Shown in pieces: positions 2,299 to 62,365 of a stretch of DNA of 64,000 bases (positions are counted from its first letter, which is position 1; every line of letters begins with the position of its first letter). The position numbers were made by a program, and so were the translations under genes. The DNA is from a virus (Duplodnaviria > Caudoviricetes), in IMG/VR virus record IMGVR_UViG_3300024331_000007, positions 64,001 to 128,000 of that record; one strand, written 5' to 3'. Below the pieces are notes generated by a model that was given only the letters and a program-made list of their open reading frames with translations, was not told the origin of the DNA and searched no databases.

Positions 2299-2327
2299 AG
2301 TATACCAAACTTCCGAATAAGAGTCAA
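2299..2327 (-). promoter_or_regulatory. Sigma70-like early promoter
   Basis: TTGACT-17 nt-TATACT with extended -10 TG. Confidence 0.8.
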
Positions 2328-2526: not shown

Positions 2527-2555
2527 TTGACGGCAACACGAAAATTTGGTATACT
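2527..2555 (+). promoter_or_regulatory. Sigma70-like early promoter of the small-ORF array operon
   Basis: TTGACG (2527-2532)-17 nt-TATACT (2550-2555), extended -10 TG; ATG 6 nt downstream with no SD. Confidence 0.8.
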
Positions 2556-2561
2556 TATTAC

Positions 2562-2903
2562 ATGGTTGAGAAAGACAAAACGACTGTGAAGCGCAAAAAG
2601 CGCACCGACCGTACTCACATCATCTATCGCCTTGCTGTTGCGAATATGGAGTACATTGGAATCACCGCCAAAACTCAATCGACGGTTTTGAAGTCTGTCC
2701 GTCTTCGTTTCGCGAAGCATGCAGAACGTGCCAGAAACGAAAACAAGCCGTGGCCTCTTTACAAGGCAATTAGGAAGTTTGGAATTGACCAGTTTGAACT
2801 GGAAATCGTTGAAATTCTCCGTGGCAAGGCTGCTGCTCATGCTCGCGAAGTTGAGCTAATCAAGGTTCGCAATCCCAAACTTAATCTGGCGAGTGCAAAA
2901 TGA
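2562..2903 (+). CDS. Small GIY-YIG nuclease-like protein, first gene of the array operon
   Basis: HIIY...YIGIT...RFAKH...LYKAIRKFG...REVELI...LN pattern. Confidence 0.7.
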   Translation: MVEKDKTTVKRKKRTDRTHIIYRLAVANMEYIGITAKTQSTVLKSVRLRFAKHAERARNENKPWPLYKAIRKFGIDQFELEIVEILRGKAAAHAREVELIKVRNPKLNLASAK

Positions 2904-3115
2904 AAGTTGGCGATTGTGGTTGGGTAAAAATTCATGCTGACATGACTCAGAAATCTTTTGGTCAGATTGTCACTATTGTAACGGGTGGTGCTGTTACTGT
3001 TTTTCTTGTTCGATCTTCTTACCATCACGGCGCAATTGCTCCTTATTTTGAGGACGAGTTTGAATTGATAGAAAATGAAGGCGAAGCAATGGCTTTACTT
3101 TTGGAGTATGCATGA
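2900..3115 (+). CDS. Array member 1, SH3/KOW-like (MKVGD) with tail GEAMALLLEYA
   Basis: ATGA overlaps at both ends; shared tail. Confidence 0.8.
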   Translation: MKVGDCGWVKIHADMTQKSFGQIVTIVTGGAVTVFLVRSSYHHGAIAPYFEDEFELIENEGEAMALLLEYA

Positions 3116-3366
3116 TAGATAAAAATGGTCATGCGCTATCTATCGGTGATTGGGTAAAGTTCCGTCCCTCCGAAAAATTCCAAATCTATTTTGGAGAAAT
3201 TGTCGGAACGTGGCAGGGTCAAGAGTTCAATAAAGTTGGCGTGTGCGTTCGTGTTATTAATTATCCTCACCCACCTCAAAAAGATGGAACTTGGCATATG
3301 TATGATGCTTCCATGACATTCTTGACCAAAGAGCAATTATTGTTGGAACTTTTGGAGAACGCATGA
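3112..3366 (+). CDS. Array member 2, YopX-like start (DKNG...IGDWV) with tail KEQLLLELLENA
   Basis: SD GGAG inside previous tail; ATGA overlap. Confidence 0.8.
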   Translation: MIDKNGHALSIGDWVKFRPSEKFQIYFGEIVGTWQGQEFNKVGVCVRVINYPHPPQKDGTWHMYDASMTFLTKEQLLLELLENA

Positions 3367-3587
3367 CTGAGTGGCAGGGTTTTGAACTTCCAGATGGATC
3401 ATTGATTCGGTATCGTGACAATGGCGACGAACGTATTGGATCGATATTCACTAATATGTATCACCAGAAACAATTTTTAGACATAAACCCAAAAGCCAAA
3501 ATGTCAAATTGGAACATATCGCAATGGGAAATGTATTCAATAGCAACAGAAGCCGACGCAATGCTTTATTTGTTGGAGAACGTATGA
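3363..3587 (+). CDS. Array member 3, LPxG type, tail TEADAMLYLLENV
   Basis: ATGA overlap; shared tail. Confidence 0.8.
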   Translation: MTEWQGFELPDGSLIRYRDNGDERIGSIFTNMYHQKQFLDINPKAKMSNWNISQWEMYSIATEADAMLYLLENV

Positions 3588-3814
3588 CGAGCGCAGAATT
3601 TAAATCGCTGAAGCCGAATATGATTGTCTATCATGTTGAGGGAGGCAAAAAGGTTTTCGGTCATGTGTCTGCGATATATCGCGCCTATCCAAACCTTTTA
3701 GGTTTCAGTAGATTTAAAGATGCGTGGGCATCTTGGATTCCAATAGACGATCCAAAAGATTTTCATATGGCATCAGAAGCCGAATCTTTTTTGTGGAAGC
3801 TGGAGAACGCATGA
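3584..3814 (+). CDS. Array member 4 (start revised to MTSAEF), tail SEAESFLWKLENA
   Basis: ATG at 3584 overlaps previous TGA after GGAG. Confidence 0.8.
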   Translation: MTSAEFKSLKPNMIVYHVEGGKKVFGHVSAIYRAYPNLLGFSRFKDAWASWIPIDDPKDFHMASEAESFLWKLENA

Positions 3815-4047
3815 GCACATTGATTGGTCAAGATCGTAACGGACAATTGGTTGAGGTTGGCGATATTGTTCTGGTCATAGATCAGGAGATTCCAATTGAA
3901 TTGGCAGTCATTCTTGATTTTCAGTATCCATTTACGGACCCGATTGTTCTAAAATTTGCAGATGGTTCTGAAGTTCATAGGCAATCGGCAGAAATTGAGA
4001 AGGTTTCAAATGAAAAAGCTGTGTTGTGGAAGCTGGAGAATCTATGA
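3811..4047 (+). CDS. Array member 5 (start revised to MSTLIG), YopX-like DRNG...VGDIV, tail SNEKAVLWKLENL
   Basis: ATGA overlap after GGAG. Confidence 0.8.
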   Translation: MSTLIGQDRNGQLVEVGDIVLVIDQEIPIELAVILDFQYPFTDPIVLKFADGSEVHRQSAEIEKVSNEKAVLWKLENL

Positions 4048-4262
4048 TTAACCTTAATATGCTCCCAGATGGAACACTCCTTTGGTACGAACAAAACGAA
4101 GACAAGATTTTGGGAACATATTCCAAGAACACTGGCGAGTTTGTTGTTAGAGGGGTAGTTGATTCTCGTACAAATGATGCGTGGCCTATCAGGAATTTAT
4201 CAATGTATCGTATTGCGACTGAATCAGAAGAGATGATGTTGTACATGTTGGAGAACGCATGA
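4044..4262 (+). CDS. Array member 6 (start revised to MINLNM), LPDG type, tail TESEEMMLYMLENA
   Basis: ATGA overlap after GGAG. Confidence 0.8.
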   Translation: MINLNMLPDGTLLWYEQNEDKILGTYSKNTGEFVVRGVVDSRTNDAWPIRNLSMYRIATESEEMMLYMLENA

Positions 4263-4438
4263 ATCTACTTGGACGAATCGTACTGGACATTTTCGTGTTT
4301 GGGTTTCCTGTGCTTGCCATCGTTGGATTTGCCGCAGGCTGGAGAATTGTGAAAGTCGGCGGGCCAAAATTTGATCGTGAAGTGAAAGACTTTTTCACGT
4401 CCAAGGAAAAGTTGATGCTCAGAAAGTTGGAGTCATGA
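4259..4438 (+). CDS. Array member 7, 59 aa single-pass membrane protein with tail SKEKLMLRKLES
   Basis: Hand translation MNLLGRIVLDIFVFGFPVLAIVGFAAGWRIVKVGGPKFDREVKDFFTSKEKLMLRKLES; below the ORF track cutoff; ATGA overlaps at both ends. Confidence 0.8.
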   Translation: MNLLGRIVLDIFVFGFPVLAIVGFAAGWRIVKVGGPKFDREVKDFFTSKEKLMLRKLES

Positions 4439-4641
4439 ATATTGGTGATTACGTTAGGGTGCATTTGGAAACCGAGGCGAGGATTCGTGTTGGACGTATA
4501 GAAGAAATTGAAAAATACAGTGAATGCGCGTTTCCATATTACGTTCGATTCTCCGCCAGCAGAACTTGCTCTTGCTCGCGGAATGAACTAGAGATAATGT
4601 CTGAAGCTGAAGCAATGCTATACATGTTGGAGAACGTATGA
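4435..4641 (+). CDS. Array member 8, KOW/SH3-like (MNIGDYV), tail SEAEAMLYMLENV
   Basis: Clear paralog of 5650-5859. Confidence 0.85.
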   Translation: MNIGDYVRVHLETEARIRVGRIEEIEKYSECAFPYYVRFSASRTCSCSRNELEIMSEAEAMLYMLENV

Positions 4642-4829
4642 AGATCGGTGATTTGGTTTACGTATTGTTAGACCACAAACATCCAGTTGTGGGGGAAATT
4701 ATTTCCCTTGAGCCTGAGATTCGACTGAGGAATCTGTATGGACGAGAAGCTCCGTTGTTCTCTACAAGAGATACAATTAGGTTATTGACAGACGGCGAAG
4801 CGATGCTCTACAAACTGGAGAACGCATGA
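4638..4829 (+). CDS. Array member 9, KOW/SH3-like (MKIGDLV), tail TDGEAMLYKLENA
   Basis: ATGA overlap; shared tail. Confidence 0.85.
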   Translation: MKIGDLVYVLLDHKHPVVGEIISLEPEIRLRNLYGREAPLFSTRDTIRLLTDGEAMLYKLENA

Positions 4830-5020
4830 ATCCGAAGATTGGAGATTTTGTTCGAATTAAACAAACTGGAGAAGTTGGGCTTATTGTTAATTTGTTTCCA
4901 AAGGCCCGATACCCATTTTTGATTAATACTCAATCTATTGGTAATAACATGTATATGGAACGTGAGTTTCAATTTGCCACAAACGAAGAGGCCATGTTAT
5001 ACAAACTGGAGAACGCATGA
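4826..5020 (+). CDS. Array member 10, KOW/SH3-like (KIGDFV), tail TNEEAMLYKLENA
   Basis: ATGA overlap; shared tail. Confidence 0.85.
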   Translation: MNPKIGDFVRIKQTGEVGLIVNLFPKARYPFLINTQSIGNNMYMEREFQFATNEEAMLYKLENA

Positions 5021-5241
5021 AAAGAAAAACAAAGGTCGGTGACATAATTAGATTGTCATTCGCAGATTCGTCCATACTGCCAAGAATCGGACAGGTTGTT
5101 GATAAGAGAAAAACATTTTTCATCGTTGAAATTAATAAATGGAGATGGCTTGTAAAGCATACCGCTTATGGAGGGAAAAGATATTACATTACTCATTTGA
5201 CGGACGAAGAGGCGATGTTGTACAAGTTGGAGGATGCATAA
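5017..5241 (+). CDS. Array member 11, KOW/SH3-like (KVGDII), tail TDEEAMLYKLEDA
   Basis: ATGA overlap at start, TAATG overlap at end. Confidence 0.85.
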   Translation: MKRKTKVGDIIRLSFADSSILPRIGQVVDKRKTFFIVEINKWRWLVKHTAYGGKRYYITHLTDEEAMLYKLEDA

Positions 5242-5417
5242 TGTTTAAGGTCGGTGATTACGTTCGAATTTTGACGGGGCCGCGAAAAGGTATGATCGGT
5301 GAAATAACATCCACATATGGAAGTGGTATGTATGTTCATCCATTCTACATGTATCCATTCGAAGTCGAATACGTTTCACCCGAAGAAGCAATGGTCTACA
5401 AACTGGAGAACGCATGA
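5241..5417 (+). CDS. Array member 12 (start revised to MFKVGD), KOW motif protein, tail SPEEAMVYKLENA
   Basis: VGDYVRILTGPRKGMIGEI is a canonical KOW motif. Confidence 0.85.
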   Translation: MFKVGDYVRILTGPRKGMIGEITSTYGSGMYVHPFYMYPFEVEYVSPEEAMVYKLENA

Positions 5418-5653
5418 GGAAAGAAGACGGACTTGCGTTGCCAGAGGGAACGTTTTTATTTTACGATAATCCTCGTCTTGGAAGAAGTTGGTACGGTACT
5501 CTTCGTTTTGAGAGAGATCAGTATGGACAGATTGAGCCTTCGTTCGAATGGACGAGGAACGGTGATAAAAAATTCTGGCCGTTGAGGGCATGGAAATTAT
5601 ATCGTCTCGCCACTGATGAAGAAGTTATGCTATACCTTTTGGAGAACGCATGA
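5414..5653 (+). CDS. Array member 13, LPEG type, tail TDEEVMLYLLENA
   Basis: ATGA overlap; shared tail. Confidence 0.85.
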   Translation: MRKEDGLALPEGTFLFYDNPRLGRSWYGTLRFERDQYGQIEPSFEWTRNGDKKFWPLRAWKLYRLATDEEVMLYLLENA

Positions 5654-5859
5654 AGATTGGTGATTACGTCAAAGTCAAGCTGGAAATTTCCAAGCAGGTT
5701 CGAGTTGGCCGCATTGACTGTATTTTGAATAGTGGACTCTTTCATGAATATCCGATTCGTGTTGCATTTCCAGATGCAAAATTTTGTTCATGTACTCGGA
5801 ATGAAGTGAAGATTATCTCAAATGAAGAAGCAATGCTTTGGATGTTGGAGAACGCATGA
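5650..5859 (+). CDS. Array member 14, KOW/SH3-like (MKIGDYV), tail SNEEAMLWMLENA
   Basis: Paralog of 4435-4641 (VRVGRI...CSCxRNE). Confidence 0.85.
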   Translation: MKIGDYVKVKLEISKQVRVGRIDCILNSGLFHEYPIRVAFPDAKFCSCTRNEVKIISNEEAMLWMLENA

Positions 5860-6089
5860 AAGAAATAGATGCCAAGCAGCTTCCAAAAGATGCTACAATT
5901 TTTTATAATCAGGGTGGTCGTAGCAGAGCTTTTGGTTATATAGAGAAAAAAGATGGAGTATTCTATTTCATTCCAGCGTATTTTAGAGATAGCGATGTCG
6001 ATTTAAATCGATGGCGCATTTCTGCATGGTATGCCTACGAAGTAATGTCCACAGAAGAATTTGTTCTTTGGAGATTGGAGAACGCATGA
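5856..6089 (+). CDS. Array member 15 (start revised to MKEIDA), LP type, tail STEEFVLWRLENA
   Basis: ATGA overlap after GGAG. Confidence 0.8.
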   Translation: MKEIDAKQLPKDATIFYNQGGRSRAFGYIEKKDGVFYFIPAYFRDSDVDLNRWRISAWYAYEVMSTEEFVLWRLENA

Positions 6090-6295
6090 CATTCGATGAT
6101 ATGTGTGAACTCGAAGAAGGCACTGTTTTGTGGTGTGAAAATACTAATTGCCCTATACTTGGAAAATTGCATTTTCATAACGGCAACGAGCCGATGTTTC
6201 AACACAATTCAGTGGGATGGCTGATCAGAGATGCACATTTATATTCAGTTGCCACCGACGAAGAGGCCATGTTATACACATTGGAGAACGCATGA
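6086..6295 (+). CDS. Array member 16 (start revised to MTFDDM), LEEGT type, tail TDEEAMLYTLENA
   Basis: ATGA overlap after GGAG. Confidence 0.8.
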   Translation: MTFDDMCELEEGTVLWCENTNCPILGKLHFHNGNEPMFQHNSVGWLIRDAHLYSVATDEEAMLYTLENA

Positions 6296-6513
6296 CAAAG
6301 GAAGAAATTTGGAGTCTCCCCTCAGGATCATATCTCTGTTGTACAAATATGTTTGGTGATGCAAGGTTTGGACGGATTCGAAAGAGAAAAGATGCAAGAA
6401 TCTTTCATACTTTGACAGGGGATAGCAAGCCATTGTCATTTAAAATTAGCAGATTTGATTATTATCGCGTAGCTTCAAAAGAAGAATACGTTCTGTGGAG
6501 ACTTGAACGATGA
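6292..6513 (+). CDS. Array member 17 (start revised to MTKEEI), LPSG type, tail SKEEYVLWRLER
   Basis: ATGA overlap after GGAG. Confidence 0.8.
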   Translation: MTKEEIWSLPSGSYLCCTNMFGDARFGRIRKRKDARIFHTLTGDSKPLSFKISRFDYYRVASKEEYVLWRLER

Positions 6514-6959
6514 CTAAATCTCCGCTGGATTTTGAAACCATCGAGGAAGCCGAAGAGTTTATTCGAGGAGTTGAGGATTTAAATTTTCTTCCTGAAGATT
6601 TACAAATCATAGCTGTACTCGGCGATCATCATAGTTATGAAAAAATCGTTAATCCAACCGAAAAGGTTAAGTTGGCTGCTGTAATGGGGTTTGGTCGGAA
6701 TATTTTCTTCATGAAAGACCCCAGCGAAGAAATTTGTCAAACAGCGGTTTCAAATGATGGAGATGTAATCAAGTACATCAAGAATCCATCGCTGGAAACG
6801 CAACTCATCGCTGTTGCTAAAAGACCGTTGGCAATTGCATGGCTCAAAAATCCATGTGAGGAAGTTCAACTTGCGGCTATACACAAAGACAGCCGCGTGA
6901 TTGCTCACATAAATAATCCAACCGAAAATGCATTGATGTTGGCCAAACTAATAAACTAA
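6510..6959 (+). CDS. Helical repeat protein, DUF4116-like; last gene of the array operon
   Basis: Repeats of the form NP[ST]ExxQLxAV...xxIxyIxN. Confidence 0.65.
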   Translation: MTKSPLDFETIEEAEEFIRGVEDLNFLPEDLQIIAVLGDHHSYEKIVNPTEKVKLAAVMGFGRNIFFMKDPSEEICQTAVSNDGDVIKYIKNPSLETQLIAVAKRPLAIAWLKNPCEEVQLAAIHKDSRVIAHINNPTENALMLAKLIN

Positions 6960-6997
6960 AAATGCTCCCTAAACTCAATCAGTTTAGGGAGCATTTT
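6959..6997. terminator. Probable bidirectional terminator
   Basis: Perfect 14 bp inverted repeat AATGCTCCCTAAAC / GTTTAGGGAGCATT between convergent genes. Confidence 0.8.
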
Positions 6998-33602: not shown

Positions 33603-34595
33603 TTAAAATCCTACCTTGTCTTGTTGTCCATCACCCTTGATTTTATGCTTCATTGTCTTGAGACGATCCAAAACAACATCATAGTCTTGGTCAAGGCAAC
33701 GAACTGCTGCTGTCATTTCGCGAAGGTGCGCAATGCTCAAGCCCTTAGTATCGGCAACCCATTTTTCAAGTTCTTCAATATCGCCGAGAATATGCTTGAG
33801 ATAAGTCTTGCGAGCTTCGGGAGAGGGCATATCAACCAAAATTCTTTCATCAAAACGGCTTGGACGATTAACAATACGTGCACCCAAACGATCAGGATAG
33901 TTGGTTGTGGCAAGCATAACGATTCTATCAACTTGATTCTCGCCATCCAGCAAAGCAAGCAAATCGTGCTCACCGAACTTCTCGATAATTTCGTCAATAT
34001 CTTCCATGATGCAGATAATGCGACGTTCTGGTTCAATACGACGCAATGCTTCTAATCCCATTGATGTGATCTTTGGGTGATCACACATAATAACAATGCC
34101 TCCGTTGTCCAACAAATACTTGTTGAGAAGCGTGATTGTGGCGGTTTTTCCGCTACCGGGAGGTCCAAATAAAAGGATACCTCTCTTGTATAGCAATCCG
34201 TGCTTACGATATCGTTCTTCCATGTCCCAAAATTTTGCCATTCCAGCCAATACCTTTTCGCTGGAACTATCAGGCAATTCCACCAACGAATCGGTGATTA
34301 CCTTGATCTTTTTGGCATAGAGTCCGTTGTCATCCCGATCAAACACATAAACACCGGGAGGAATTGATTCTCTGGTTACGCCAGCGGGACGAAATGTATC
34401 GTTCGCTCCTACTTGCCATTGGCGAAATTCAAAACTTGATTTACTTGATGCTGTGCACCCATCAATTTCATCCCAATCATTAGATGGGCTGGATAGGGTT
34501 TTCGCGTTCATTTCTCGTTGTCTGTCGCTGATTTCTGGTTCATTAACCAGCATATCGTTAAGAATCTCGTCGTCAGTTTTTCCATTTATCGTCAT
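33603..34595 (-). CDS. AAA+ ATPase
   Basis: GPPGSGKT, MEDID, TTNYP, RPSRFD. Confidence 0.9.
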   Translation of the reverse strand: MTINGKTDDEILNDMLVNEPEISDRQREMNAKTLSSPSNDWDEIDGCTASSKSSFEFRQWQVGANDTFRPAGVTRESIPPGVYVFDRDDNGLYAKKIKVITDSLVELPDSSSEKVLAGMAKFWDMEERYRKHGLLYKRGILLFGPPGSGKTATITLLNKYLLDNGGIVIMCDHPKITSMGLEALRRIEPERRIICIMEDIDEIIEKFGEHDLLALLDGENQVDRIVMLATTNYPDRLGARIVNRPSRFDERILVDMPSPEARKTYLKHILGDIEELEKWVADTKGLSIAHLREMTAAVRCLDQDYDVVLDRLKTMKHKIKGDGQQDKVGF

Positions 34596-61638: not shown

Positions 61639-61893
61639 TCATGACCACTCCAGCATGAACAGTACATATTCAGATTTGCTTTTAAATGTGAAAGTGAGTA
61701 TATCAGTCCCCCAAACTGCATTAACTTTGATACCGAAATGTTCCATCCATTTTTGGCAGGCAAAATTCAAAGACTCCTGCGCCGATTGACTATCTTGTTT
61801 ATATTTTTTGGGGATGGTTGAAAGATAATCATTTGCCTTCATAAATGCGCTTCCCATCGTTTGAACATCAACTGTTAATGACTCGTCATTCAT
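61639..61893 (-). CDS. Second array member, tail FKSKSEYVLFMLEWS
   Basis: TGGAGTGGTCATGA junction. Confidence 0.8.
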   Translation of the reverse strand: MNDESLTVDVQTMGSAFMKANDYLSTIPKKYKQDSQSAQESLNFACQKWMEHFGIKVNAVWGTDILTFTFKSKSEYVLFMLEWS

Positions 61894-62129
61894 GACCACT
61901 CCAACATGTACAAAACATAATCTTCTTTGCTATCAAACACGATGTATCCATAACGCTCGTTTTTCTTTCCTTTGTTTTTATGAACAAGAATAGCACGAAA
62001 AGCGTCATGATATCTTTGATTCAATTCTTCCTGTGTCATTAGTATAAGTGTATCTGCTCCAAATAACGATTCCCATGCATTCAAGTGGGCTGAATAGATG
62101 GCATCAAATCTCGCTCGATATTTTTTCAT
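61890..62129 (-). CDS. Second array member, tail FDSKEDYVLYMLEWS
   Basis: TTGGAGTGGTCATGA junction. Confidence 0.8.
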   Translation of the reverse strand: MKKYRARFDAIYSAHLNAWESLFGADTLILMTQEELNQRYHDAFRAILVHKNKGKKNERYGYIVFDSKEDYVLYMLEWS

Positions 62130-62365
62130 GTCCACTCCAATGTCGTTAAAACAAATGATTCCTTGTTTTCAAATTCAAGGTAGTACCATCCTTGTCCGCG
62201 TTCATCATCTATTGTTAAAAGCCTAGCGTTGCATTTATCCTTGAAAAATTTAACAAGGGTGTCATCGTCGTAATTAAATGAGAACTCGTATCGGCAAGCG
62301 TCAATAACATGACACCATACCTCGGGTATATCAGTTACCTTTACGAGTTGTTTTAGATGTCCCAT
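62126..62365 (-). CDS. Second array member, tail FENKESFVLTTLEWT
   Basis: TTGGAGTGGACATGA junction. Confidence 0.8.
   Translation of the reverse strand: MGHLKQLVKVTDIPEVWCHVIDACRYEFSFNYDDDTLVKFFKDKCNARLLTIDDERGQGWYYLEFENKESFVLTTLEWT

Follow-up and report, generated by a model that had tools for sequence, protein, structure and literature searches.

How does one C-terminal tail come to be carried by proteins of unrelated fold, and what does it do there? The question is raised by a 64,000-nucleotide stretch of viral DNA (the window, bases 64001–128000 of a 359,890-bp virus record), in which an open reading frame (ORF) for a 59-residue membrane protein lies among genes for soluble barrels and ends in a tail like theirs. 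The initial annotation of the window took this to mean that the tail is a portable tag, and suggested that the membrane protein could anchor the tagged assembly to the membrane. The two halves of this proposal are examined below together with the DNA that encodes the tail, which turns out to hold part of the answer.

The source phage and its mini-gene operon

The nearest relatives of the tail sheath, at ~40% identity, are those of PA5oct, Paride, Phosso and Atu_ph07, on which basis the source can be classed as an uncultured, T4-like jumbo phage of ~360 kb from soil. The operon of interest is headed by a sigma70-type promoter match (TTGACG-17-TATACT with an extended TG; 2527..2555, plus strand), the best site in a promoter scan whose number of sites was no higher than in shuffled sequence; the promoter type would imply early expression. 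A divergent sigma70-type match with an identical −10 hexamer stands back to back with it (2299–2327, minus strand). The first gene encodes a GIY-YIG-domain protein (2562..2903, plus strand) and is a constant neighbour of the membrane family in relatives. It is followed by an array of 17 coupled mini-genes (2900..6513, plus strand), made up of 16 soluble barrel-type genes with the tail and the 59-residue membrane gene, and the last gene encodes a 149-residue DUF4116-like helical-repeat protein with a tail-like helix at its end (6510..6959, plus strand). A 17–18 bp hairpin with T-runs on both strands (6959..6997) is a candidate bidirectional terminator. The whole mini-gene array is bracketed by this single promoter match and single terminator candidate, with none at the gene junctions.

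The barrel neighbours are SH3/KOW-like and carry KIGDxV at the start of a five-strand barrel. In the predicted structure of one of them, the barrel is followed by a C-terminal helix (residues 57–66, pLDDT 91), and the model matches PsaE, Tudor and KOW domains with Z scores of 7–9; the fold is a common one, and its matches include the SH3-fold Lon factor 5ycq (Z 6.7). In the DUF4116-like protein, the last repeat closes in the tail-like helix, which is invariant in the orthologue, and the repeat opens with P-S/T-E-E, similar to the opening of the barrel tails, and may be where the motif originated. Three related records (L016, L063 and L064) have the repeat gene and most of the barrel array inverted onto the opposite strand relative to window 2900–6959, as seen at L016:2869–4946, and the promoter region contains inverted repeats.

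A small gene for a predicted inner-membrane protein

The 59-residue gene (4259..4438, plus strand) encodes a putative single-pass membrane protein of an unnamed nine-member phage family, and its translation ends in TSKEKLMLRKLES. Its ribosome-binding site (RBS), GGAG, is embedded in the tail of the upstream gene, at the Leu-Glu codons, and precedes the ATG by 5 nt (4250..4253), and its start overlaps the stop of that upstream barrel gene as ATGA (4259..4262). Downstream, a second ATGA overlap joins it to the next gene (4435–4438), whose initiation region (4421..4438) has AGAAAG at 8 nt from the ATG and GGAG at only 2 nt, and whose predicted RBS is the weakest in the array. The coupling, initially described as the same as that of the neighbours, is the same in its ATGA overlap but not in its RBS geometry. 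The ORF is absent from the ORF track, as the initial annotation reported, probably through a 60-residue cut-off, yet it is called by public gene callers.

An orthologue, P0002, whose 28-kb contig carries the same operon, shares 83% protein and 75% DNA identity with it. The comparison gives a dN of 0.12, a dS of about 2.4 (saturated) and a dN/dS of about 0.05; third positions hold 28 of the 45 changes, and the last 17 residues are identical over many synonymous changes. Because dN is low, dS high and most changes fall at third positions, the substitution pattern marks the ORF as a real protein-coding gene, which speaks against the untranslated ORF that the initial annotation had allowed for. 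The contrary view, that this is a junk ORF lying between two coupled genes and resembling the tail by convergence or chance, has the shortness of the ORF as its one argument and faces the low dN/dS, nine homologues and a tail score above all nulls (see below); we regard it as scarcely credible. The JGI gene call for P0002 (65 residues) places the start six codons too early. Its name there, FliR, is unsupported, since FliR is an export protein of about 260 residues with multiple membrane passes (Bac_export_1), whereas the family proteins have 59–69 residues and match Bac_export_1 in one member only (E 0.044).

Three helices are predicted for the protein: a transmembrane helix at residues about 7–28, followed by basic residues (4277..4342, plus strand; from hydropathy and AlphaFold2), an amphipathic helix at residues 35–46 with a hydrophobic moment of 1.8 (4361..4396, plus strand), and a tail helix at residues 49–58 (4403..4432, plus strand), whose core, M-L-R-K-L-E, lies at 4415–4432. 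Amphipathicity is strong over residues 36–47, and a Thr-Pro or Thr-Ser break parts the tail helix from the amphipathic one. The Kyte–Doolittle 19-mer hydropathy peaks at 2.46 over residues 7–25, against at most 1.77 among the 16 barrel neighbours. AlphaFold2 models of six family members have three helices and zero strands (helices 3–33, 35–46 and 49–58, at a pTM of 0.35, too low for packing to be read). The same six members reach hydropathy peaks of 2.4–2.8 and carry 4–5 Lys/Arg after the helix versus 0–1 before the mature start. With one hydrophobic helix of ~20 residues and a positive-inside bias, the protein is predicted to be a single-pass inner-membrane protein; the positive-inside rule would place its N-terminus outside and its C-terminus, with the tail, in the cytoplasm, and the amphipathic helix probably lies on the cytoplasmic face of the membrane. 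The hydrophobic peak and the all-helical models agree with the initial description of a transmembrane helix in place of a β-barrel. An SH3/KOW-like barrel was rejected as the fold of this protein, given the all-helical model and the lack of barrel similarity outside the tail.

A membrane family that keeps its tail

Together with eight relatives, the 59-residue protein forms a family of nine. Searching 1.84 billion representatives with a profile that included the tail brought in four members, while a body-only query, from which the tail had been left out, found three new members, every one of them with the tail. No tail-less homologue was retrieved, even by the body-only query, within the lengths searched: where the initial annotation had envisaged that homologues might lack the tail residues, 9/9 keep them. 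M-L-R-K is invariant across the nine and is followed by Leu or Phe (M-L-R-K-[LF]). Mean identity rises from 37% in the membrane helix to 76% at residues 37–47 and 93% at residues 53–58, the tail.

The family had no match in Pfam, PHROGs, PDB sequences or BFVD, and a search of the ESM Atlas with the 59-residue protein gave generic helix matches only. Relatives were likewise absent among cultured phages, and pattern scans of viral and metagenome contigs returned zero. All members whose context was readable lie in this operon, at varying positions: in mid-array in the window and in the related record L001, right behind the GIY-YIG gene in L013, L014 and L017, and before a radical-SAM gene in L016.

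One tail core on many bodies

Scored against a profile of its 16 neighbours, the tail of the 59-residue protein reaches 12.5 bits, a value attained by 0/1359 shadow ORFs, 0/145 long genes and 1/20000 shuffles; in about seven rows of the tail scoring, a more internal L-E was taken as the anchor in place of the terminal one, so that some class scores come out lower and the column counts hardly change. By this measure the protein belongs to a lineage-wide set of tails of the form hydrophobic-L-x-K-L-E, the core ending 1–2 residues before the stop. Within the set, it represents an R-K-L-E-S subtype, and its barrel neighbours an A-M-L-Y/W-K-L-E-N-A subtype. Barrel tails have Tyr/Trp at −2 in 14/16 cases and Ala at −5 in 10, where the 59-residue protein has Arg and Leu, as do membrane and third-family tails. 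Assignment to the barrel subtype fails also at the end (N-A versus S-stop) and in the distance of GGAG from the next start (5 nt versus 2 nt). Thus the tail described at first as the same shares its core with the neighbours' and differs in subtype and, because of this difference, it was probably not copied from an adjacent gene.

The tail is widespread in the source genome and sparse in relatives. By a simple codon-usage heuristic for gene calling, which makes genome counts approximate, 75 of the 414 small genes of the source (about one in six) carry the tail core, compared with 0/234 in Paride and 4/479 in Atu_ph07 (400 kb); a looser pattern finds it in 79 small genes against 5/208 large ones in the source genome. 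Because the arrays of Paride and Atu_ph07 are dense as well, dense gene overlap alone does not produce the tail. Six pairs of orthologues shared by the window and L001 have tails identical at 64/72 positions and bodies at 272/427 (p about 1e-5).

Other membrane bodies also bear it. Directly after the family orthologue in L001 lies an uncalled ORF for a 52-residue single-pass membrane protein (L001:6198–6356, plus strand), whose body is unrelated and whose last seven residues are identical to those of the orthologue; a search for homologues of this ORF found none. The public gene call at this place begins in a wrong frame region. Six further membrane ORFs with the tail are present in the source genome. 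Just past the window, a tandem array of six two-helix membrane proteins carries it (genome 128.8–130.5 kb; L002:1310–3020, minus strand), one with 25 extra residues after the tail and one with a degenerate tail; an hhalign comparison of this array with the 59-residue family gives a probability of 62%, driven by the tail and hydrophobicity, and a search of the source genome with the family profile A6 matched only the 59-residue gene. An 81-residue two-helix membrane protein with the tail is encoded inside the other large mini-gene array (L062:1029–1274, plus strand; genome 266028–266273), a placing that mirrors that of the 59-residue gene. Three mini-genes elsewhere in the window (61639–62365, minus strand) end in L-E-W-S/T; the F-x-S-K-E before their tails recalls the 59-residue protein, probably by chance, because other family members have T-P-x-T-I there.

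The recurrence of the tail on other membrane bodies, and its place as the most conserved part of the family, support the initial claim that it works independently of the barrel. Another possibility is that the tail is a structural or stabilising element of each body, a terminal amphipathic helix packing on it or on the membrane surface and shielding the C-terminus from host proteases, which spread by recombination and is retained for stability with no specific reader. The barrel model, with a confident tail helix right after the last strand, is in keeping with such a role, as are the body-specific Ala and Tyr/Trp of barrel tails and, in the membrane family, the conservation of the adjoining amphipathic helix. 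Yet the same five residues, the exposed R-K included, are invariant on bodies that share no surface, and packing by hydrophobicity alone would accept substitutions, as is seen in the membrane helix. On balance, we consider a purely structural tail decidedly unlikely.

Tail DNA as the start of the next gene

Across the source genome, 97/106 tails stop 1–2 residues past the Glu. GGAG falls on the L-E codons in 17/25 tails with two residues after the Glu versus 5/31 with one, and Arg is encoded by AGA/AGG in 13/16 coupled tails. Codon choice shifts with RBS spacing while the L-E residues stay. Of the eight members of the membrane family for which DNA is available, only three have the ATGA and one a well-spaced GAGG, and the tail is kept also where the GGAG site and the overlap are missing; M-L-R-K-L/F is retained with synonymous codon variation, in support of a peptide that is read. 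Because the residues persist while codons, RBS and overlap vary, the peptide itself appears to be selected, with the RBS overlaid where spacing permits. Part of the R-K conservation may nonetheless act at the nucleotide level, given that the tail Arg is AGA in 8/8 members, a codon with a genome use of 23–27%.

A natural deletion illustrates the double role. Over 10 kb, L063 and L064, records from two other samples, match L016 at 99% identity apart from a missing 665 bp. The absent segment spans the body of the membrane gene and two further genes, its breakpoints show no repeat, and the barrel genes with their tails are kept. The remnant consists precisely of the membrane gene's final seven codons, together with the GAGG site that serves the radical-SAM gene, and forms a 7-codon mini-ORF between the GIY-YIG stop and the radical-SAM start (L063/L064:6335–6362, compared with L016:5485–6177). 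The tail DNA has here outlived the loss of its body, and a remnant of this kind would offer a route by which a new body could acquire the tail. The initial annotation overlooked the next gene's start signals within the tail DNA; these alone would provide a route for swapping bodies upstream of the tail.

It could be argued that the tail is mainly a translational coupler, inherited by new bodies through recombination just upstream and read as a peptide by no partner. Selection would then maintain the stop/RBS/start unit, and perhaps also a nascent peptide by which termination and re-initiation are promoted. The 7-codon remnant of tail residues, the fixed distance of most tails from the stop and the RBS-like codon choice all fit this reading. 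It is harder to reconcile with M-L and L-E persisting in codons that give no RBS and in the absence of overlap, or with the equally dense arrays of relatives that lack the motif, and we think it unlikely.

The same deletion weighs on the anchor proposed initially, in which tails bind each other or a scaffold and the 59-residue protein tethers the barrel assembly to the membrane. Co-transcription with 16 tailed barrels, the fact that family members always lie in this operon and the predicted cytoplasmic side of the tail would suit a tether. However, the gene body is deleted in near-identical phages that retain the barrels, although other membrane members could substitute; the membrane members vary in position and copy number (one in the window, two unrelated ones in L001); and the 59-residue tail is without the barrel-type Ala and Tyr/Trp. 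The membrane gene, lost from phages 99% identical to a carrier, is dispensable at this one locus; both records are fragments, so that another membrane member may lie elsewhere in these phages. A predicted complex of the cytoplasmic part with a barrel scored 0.02, which carries no weight either way. Anchoring of a putative tagged assembly, disfavoured by the gene loss, the varying position and the tail subtype, strikes us as improbable. The initial proposal is partly supported: portability of the tail gains support and the anchor none.

A proposed dual-coded module

With moderate confidence, we favour the tail as a dual-coded module, at once a peptide motif read by one common, putative partner and the start site of the next gene. 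The 59-residue ORF would be an early, accessory gene, and its product a small protein of the inner membrane in which a single transmembrane helix (N-out, C-in) is followed by an amphipathic helix lying on the cytoplasmic face and by the C-terminal tail helix, free in the cytoplasm. The tail peptide would act as a short helical recognition motif, read by a partner of host or phage origin, a Clp-type ATPase or another hub being candidates, and the 59-residue protein would be one more client of this partner, acting at the membrane, rather than an anchor of barrels. The tail DNA, which includes the stop and the next gene's RBS and start, would tend to stay in place when its body is lost or exchanged, and would so spread to new bodies. 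We infer the topology, the early expression and the common partner. Several points count against this model, among them that, with the amphipathic helix conserved at 76%, the tail might pack on its own body, and that the two positions at which barrel and non-barrel subtypes differ fit own-body packing as readily as a shared core.

The analysis found no partner for the tail. In keeping with the model, the source phage encodes ClpP, ClpX, ClpS and a ClpA-like ATPase (L060:1065–2642, minus strand; L061; genome 179986–180549), and Clp genes are known for this phage group (PMC7824862). ClpS is encoded beside ClpX, which has a zinc-binding domain, the ClpA-like ATPase stands beside a DnaJ-like gene, and ClpP is divergent. 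Considered as readers of the tail, the phage Clp genes do not track it, since they occur also in tail-less relatives. A hub candidate in the window is a 330-residue AAA-type ATPase (33603–34595, minus strand) ending in V-G-F, reminiscent of the IGF docking motif.

A wider version of the model is more speculative, and we offer it tentatively: the tail as a proteome-wide address label, by which a hundred-odd mini-proteins, soluble and membrane-bound, would form an interchangeable adaptor library for a single receptor such as a Clp ATPase. With the label encoded in the DNA that starts the next gene, new bodies would be tagged automatically, and the membrane members would extend the system to membrane targets.

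Comparison with known systems

Shared terminal motifs are of a known kind. In phage T4, gp43, gp55 and gp33 carry interchangeable C-terminal motifs that bind the sliding clamp and are read by this one hub (PMC2988020). There, too, one short C-terminal motif is found on unrelated phage proteins, but these are three large replication and transcription proteins whose hydrophobic-acidic epitope sits at the end of a flexible linker, as opposed to 75 or more mini-proteins including membrane ones; the 59-residue tail, basic and helical, does not qualify as a clamp-binding tail. LarA and HspQ bear transferable C-terminal signals for the Lon protease (PMC10665427), and ClpX recognises C-motif 2, as in FtsZ and MuA (PMC3983244). 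These signals resemble the tail in being short C-terminal sequences, and they work on foreign bodies; the LarA degron, however, consists of five unstructured residues, whereas the phage tail is a predicted helix. The R-K-hydrophobic of the tail is similar to the end of C-motif 2 (R/H-x-K/R-K-hydrophobic), of which only the last three positions match (R-K-L), the first being Met in 9/9 members, and the barrel tails depart further in having Tyr/Trp instead of Arg.

At the level of gene arrays, the hyperplastic regions of T4-type phages, with their PeSL cassettes (PMC2839356), offer a parallel in their small non-essential genes, sigma70-like promoters and reshuffling by gain and loss. PeSL cassettes are non-coding promoter-stem-loop repeats, however, and the unit repeated here is a coding tail with an RBS; PeSL cassettes were rejected for the array junctions, which hold zero promoters or stem-loops, and the observed deletion has no end repeats.

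Further afield, the ankyrin/PRANC and F-box adaptors of poxviruses combine a variable body with a constant terminal module in a large DNA virus and address eukaryotic ubiquitin ligases; the plan of body plus module is similar, there is no sequence relation, and the poxvirus families are not known to have a bacterial counterpart. T4 Imm, holins and antiholins are small phage inner-membrane proteins encoded by accessory genes. The 59-residue protein is like them in size, membrane helix and accessory nature, and unlike them in standing in an early-operon context rather than a lysis cassette.

New in the present case are the scale, the extension to membrane proteins and the dual coding. A full-text literature search, with most subscription papers outside its reach, found no description of the tail. 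The nine-member membrane family, the search for tail-free homologues, the negative controls in cultured relatives and the deletion that leaves the tail are newly described here.

Significance

The membrane family removes the simplest objection to the tail as a module, namely that it is the mere last helix of one fold. The 59-residue protein is the cleanest test object, since its tail cannot pack on a barrel. The deletion that spares only the tail shows how a ribosome-binding site and a coding tag can move together, and by this route genes could be born both tagged and coupled. Should one partner indeed read the tail, a sixth of this phage group's small ORFans could be accounted for at once as clients of a single pathway; should none do so, the locus still provides a new family of small membrane proteins and a clear case of dual coding.
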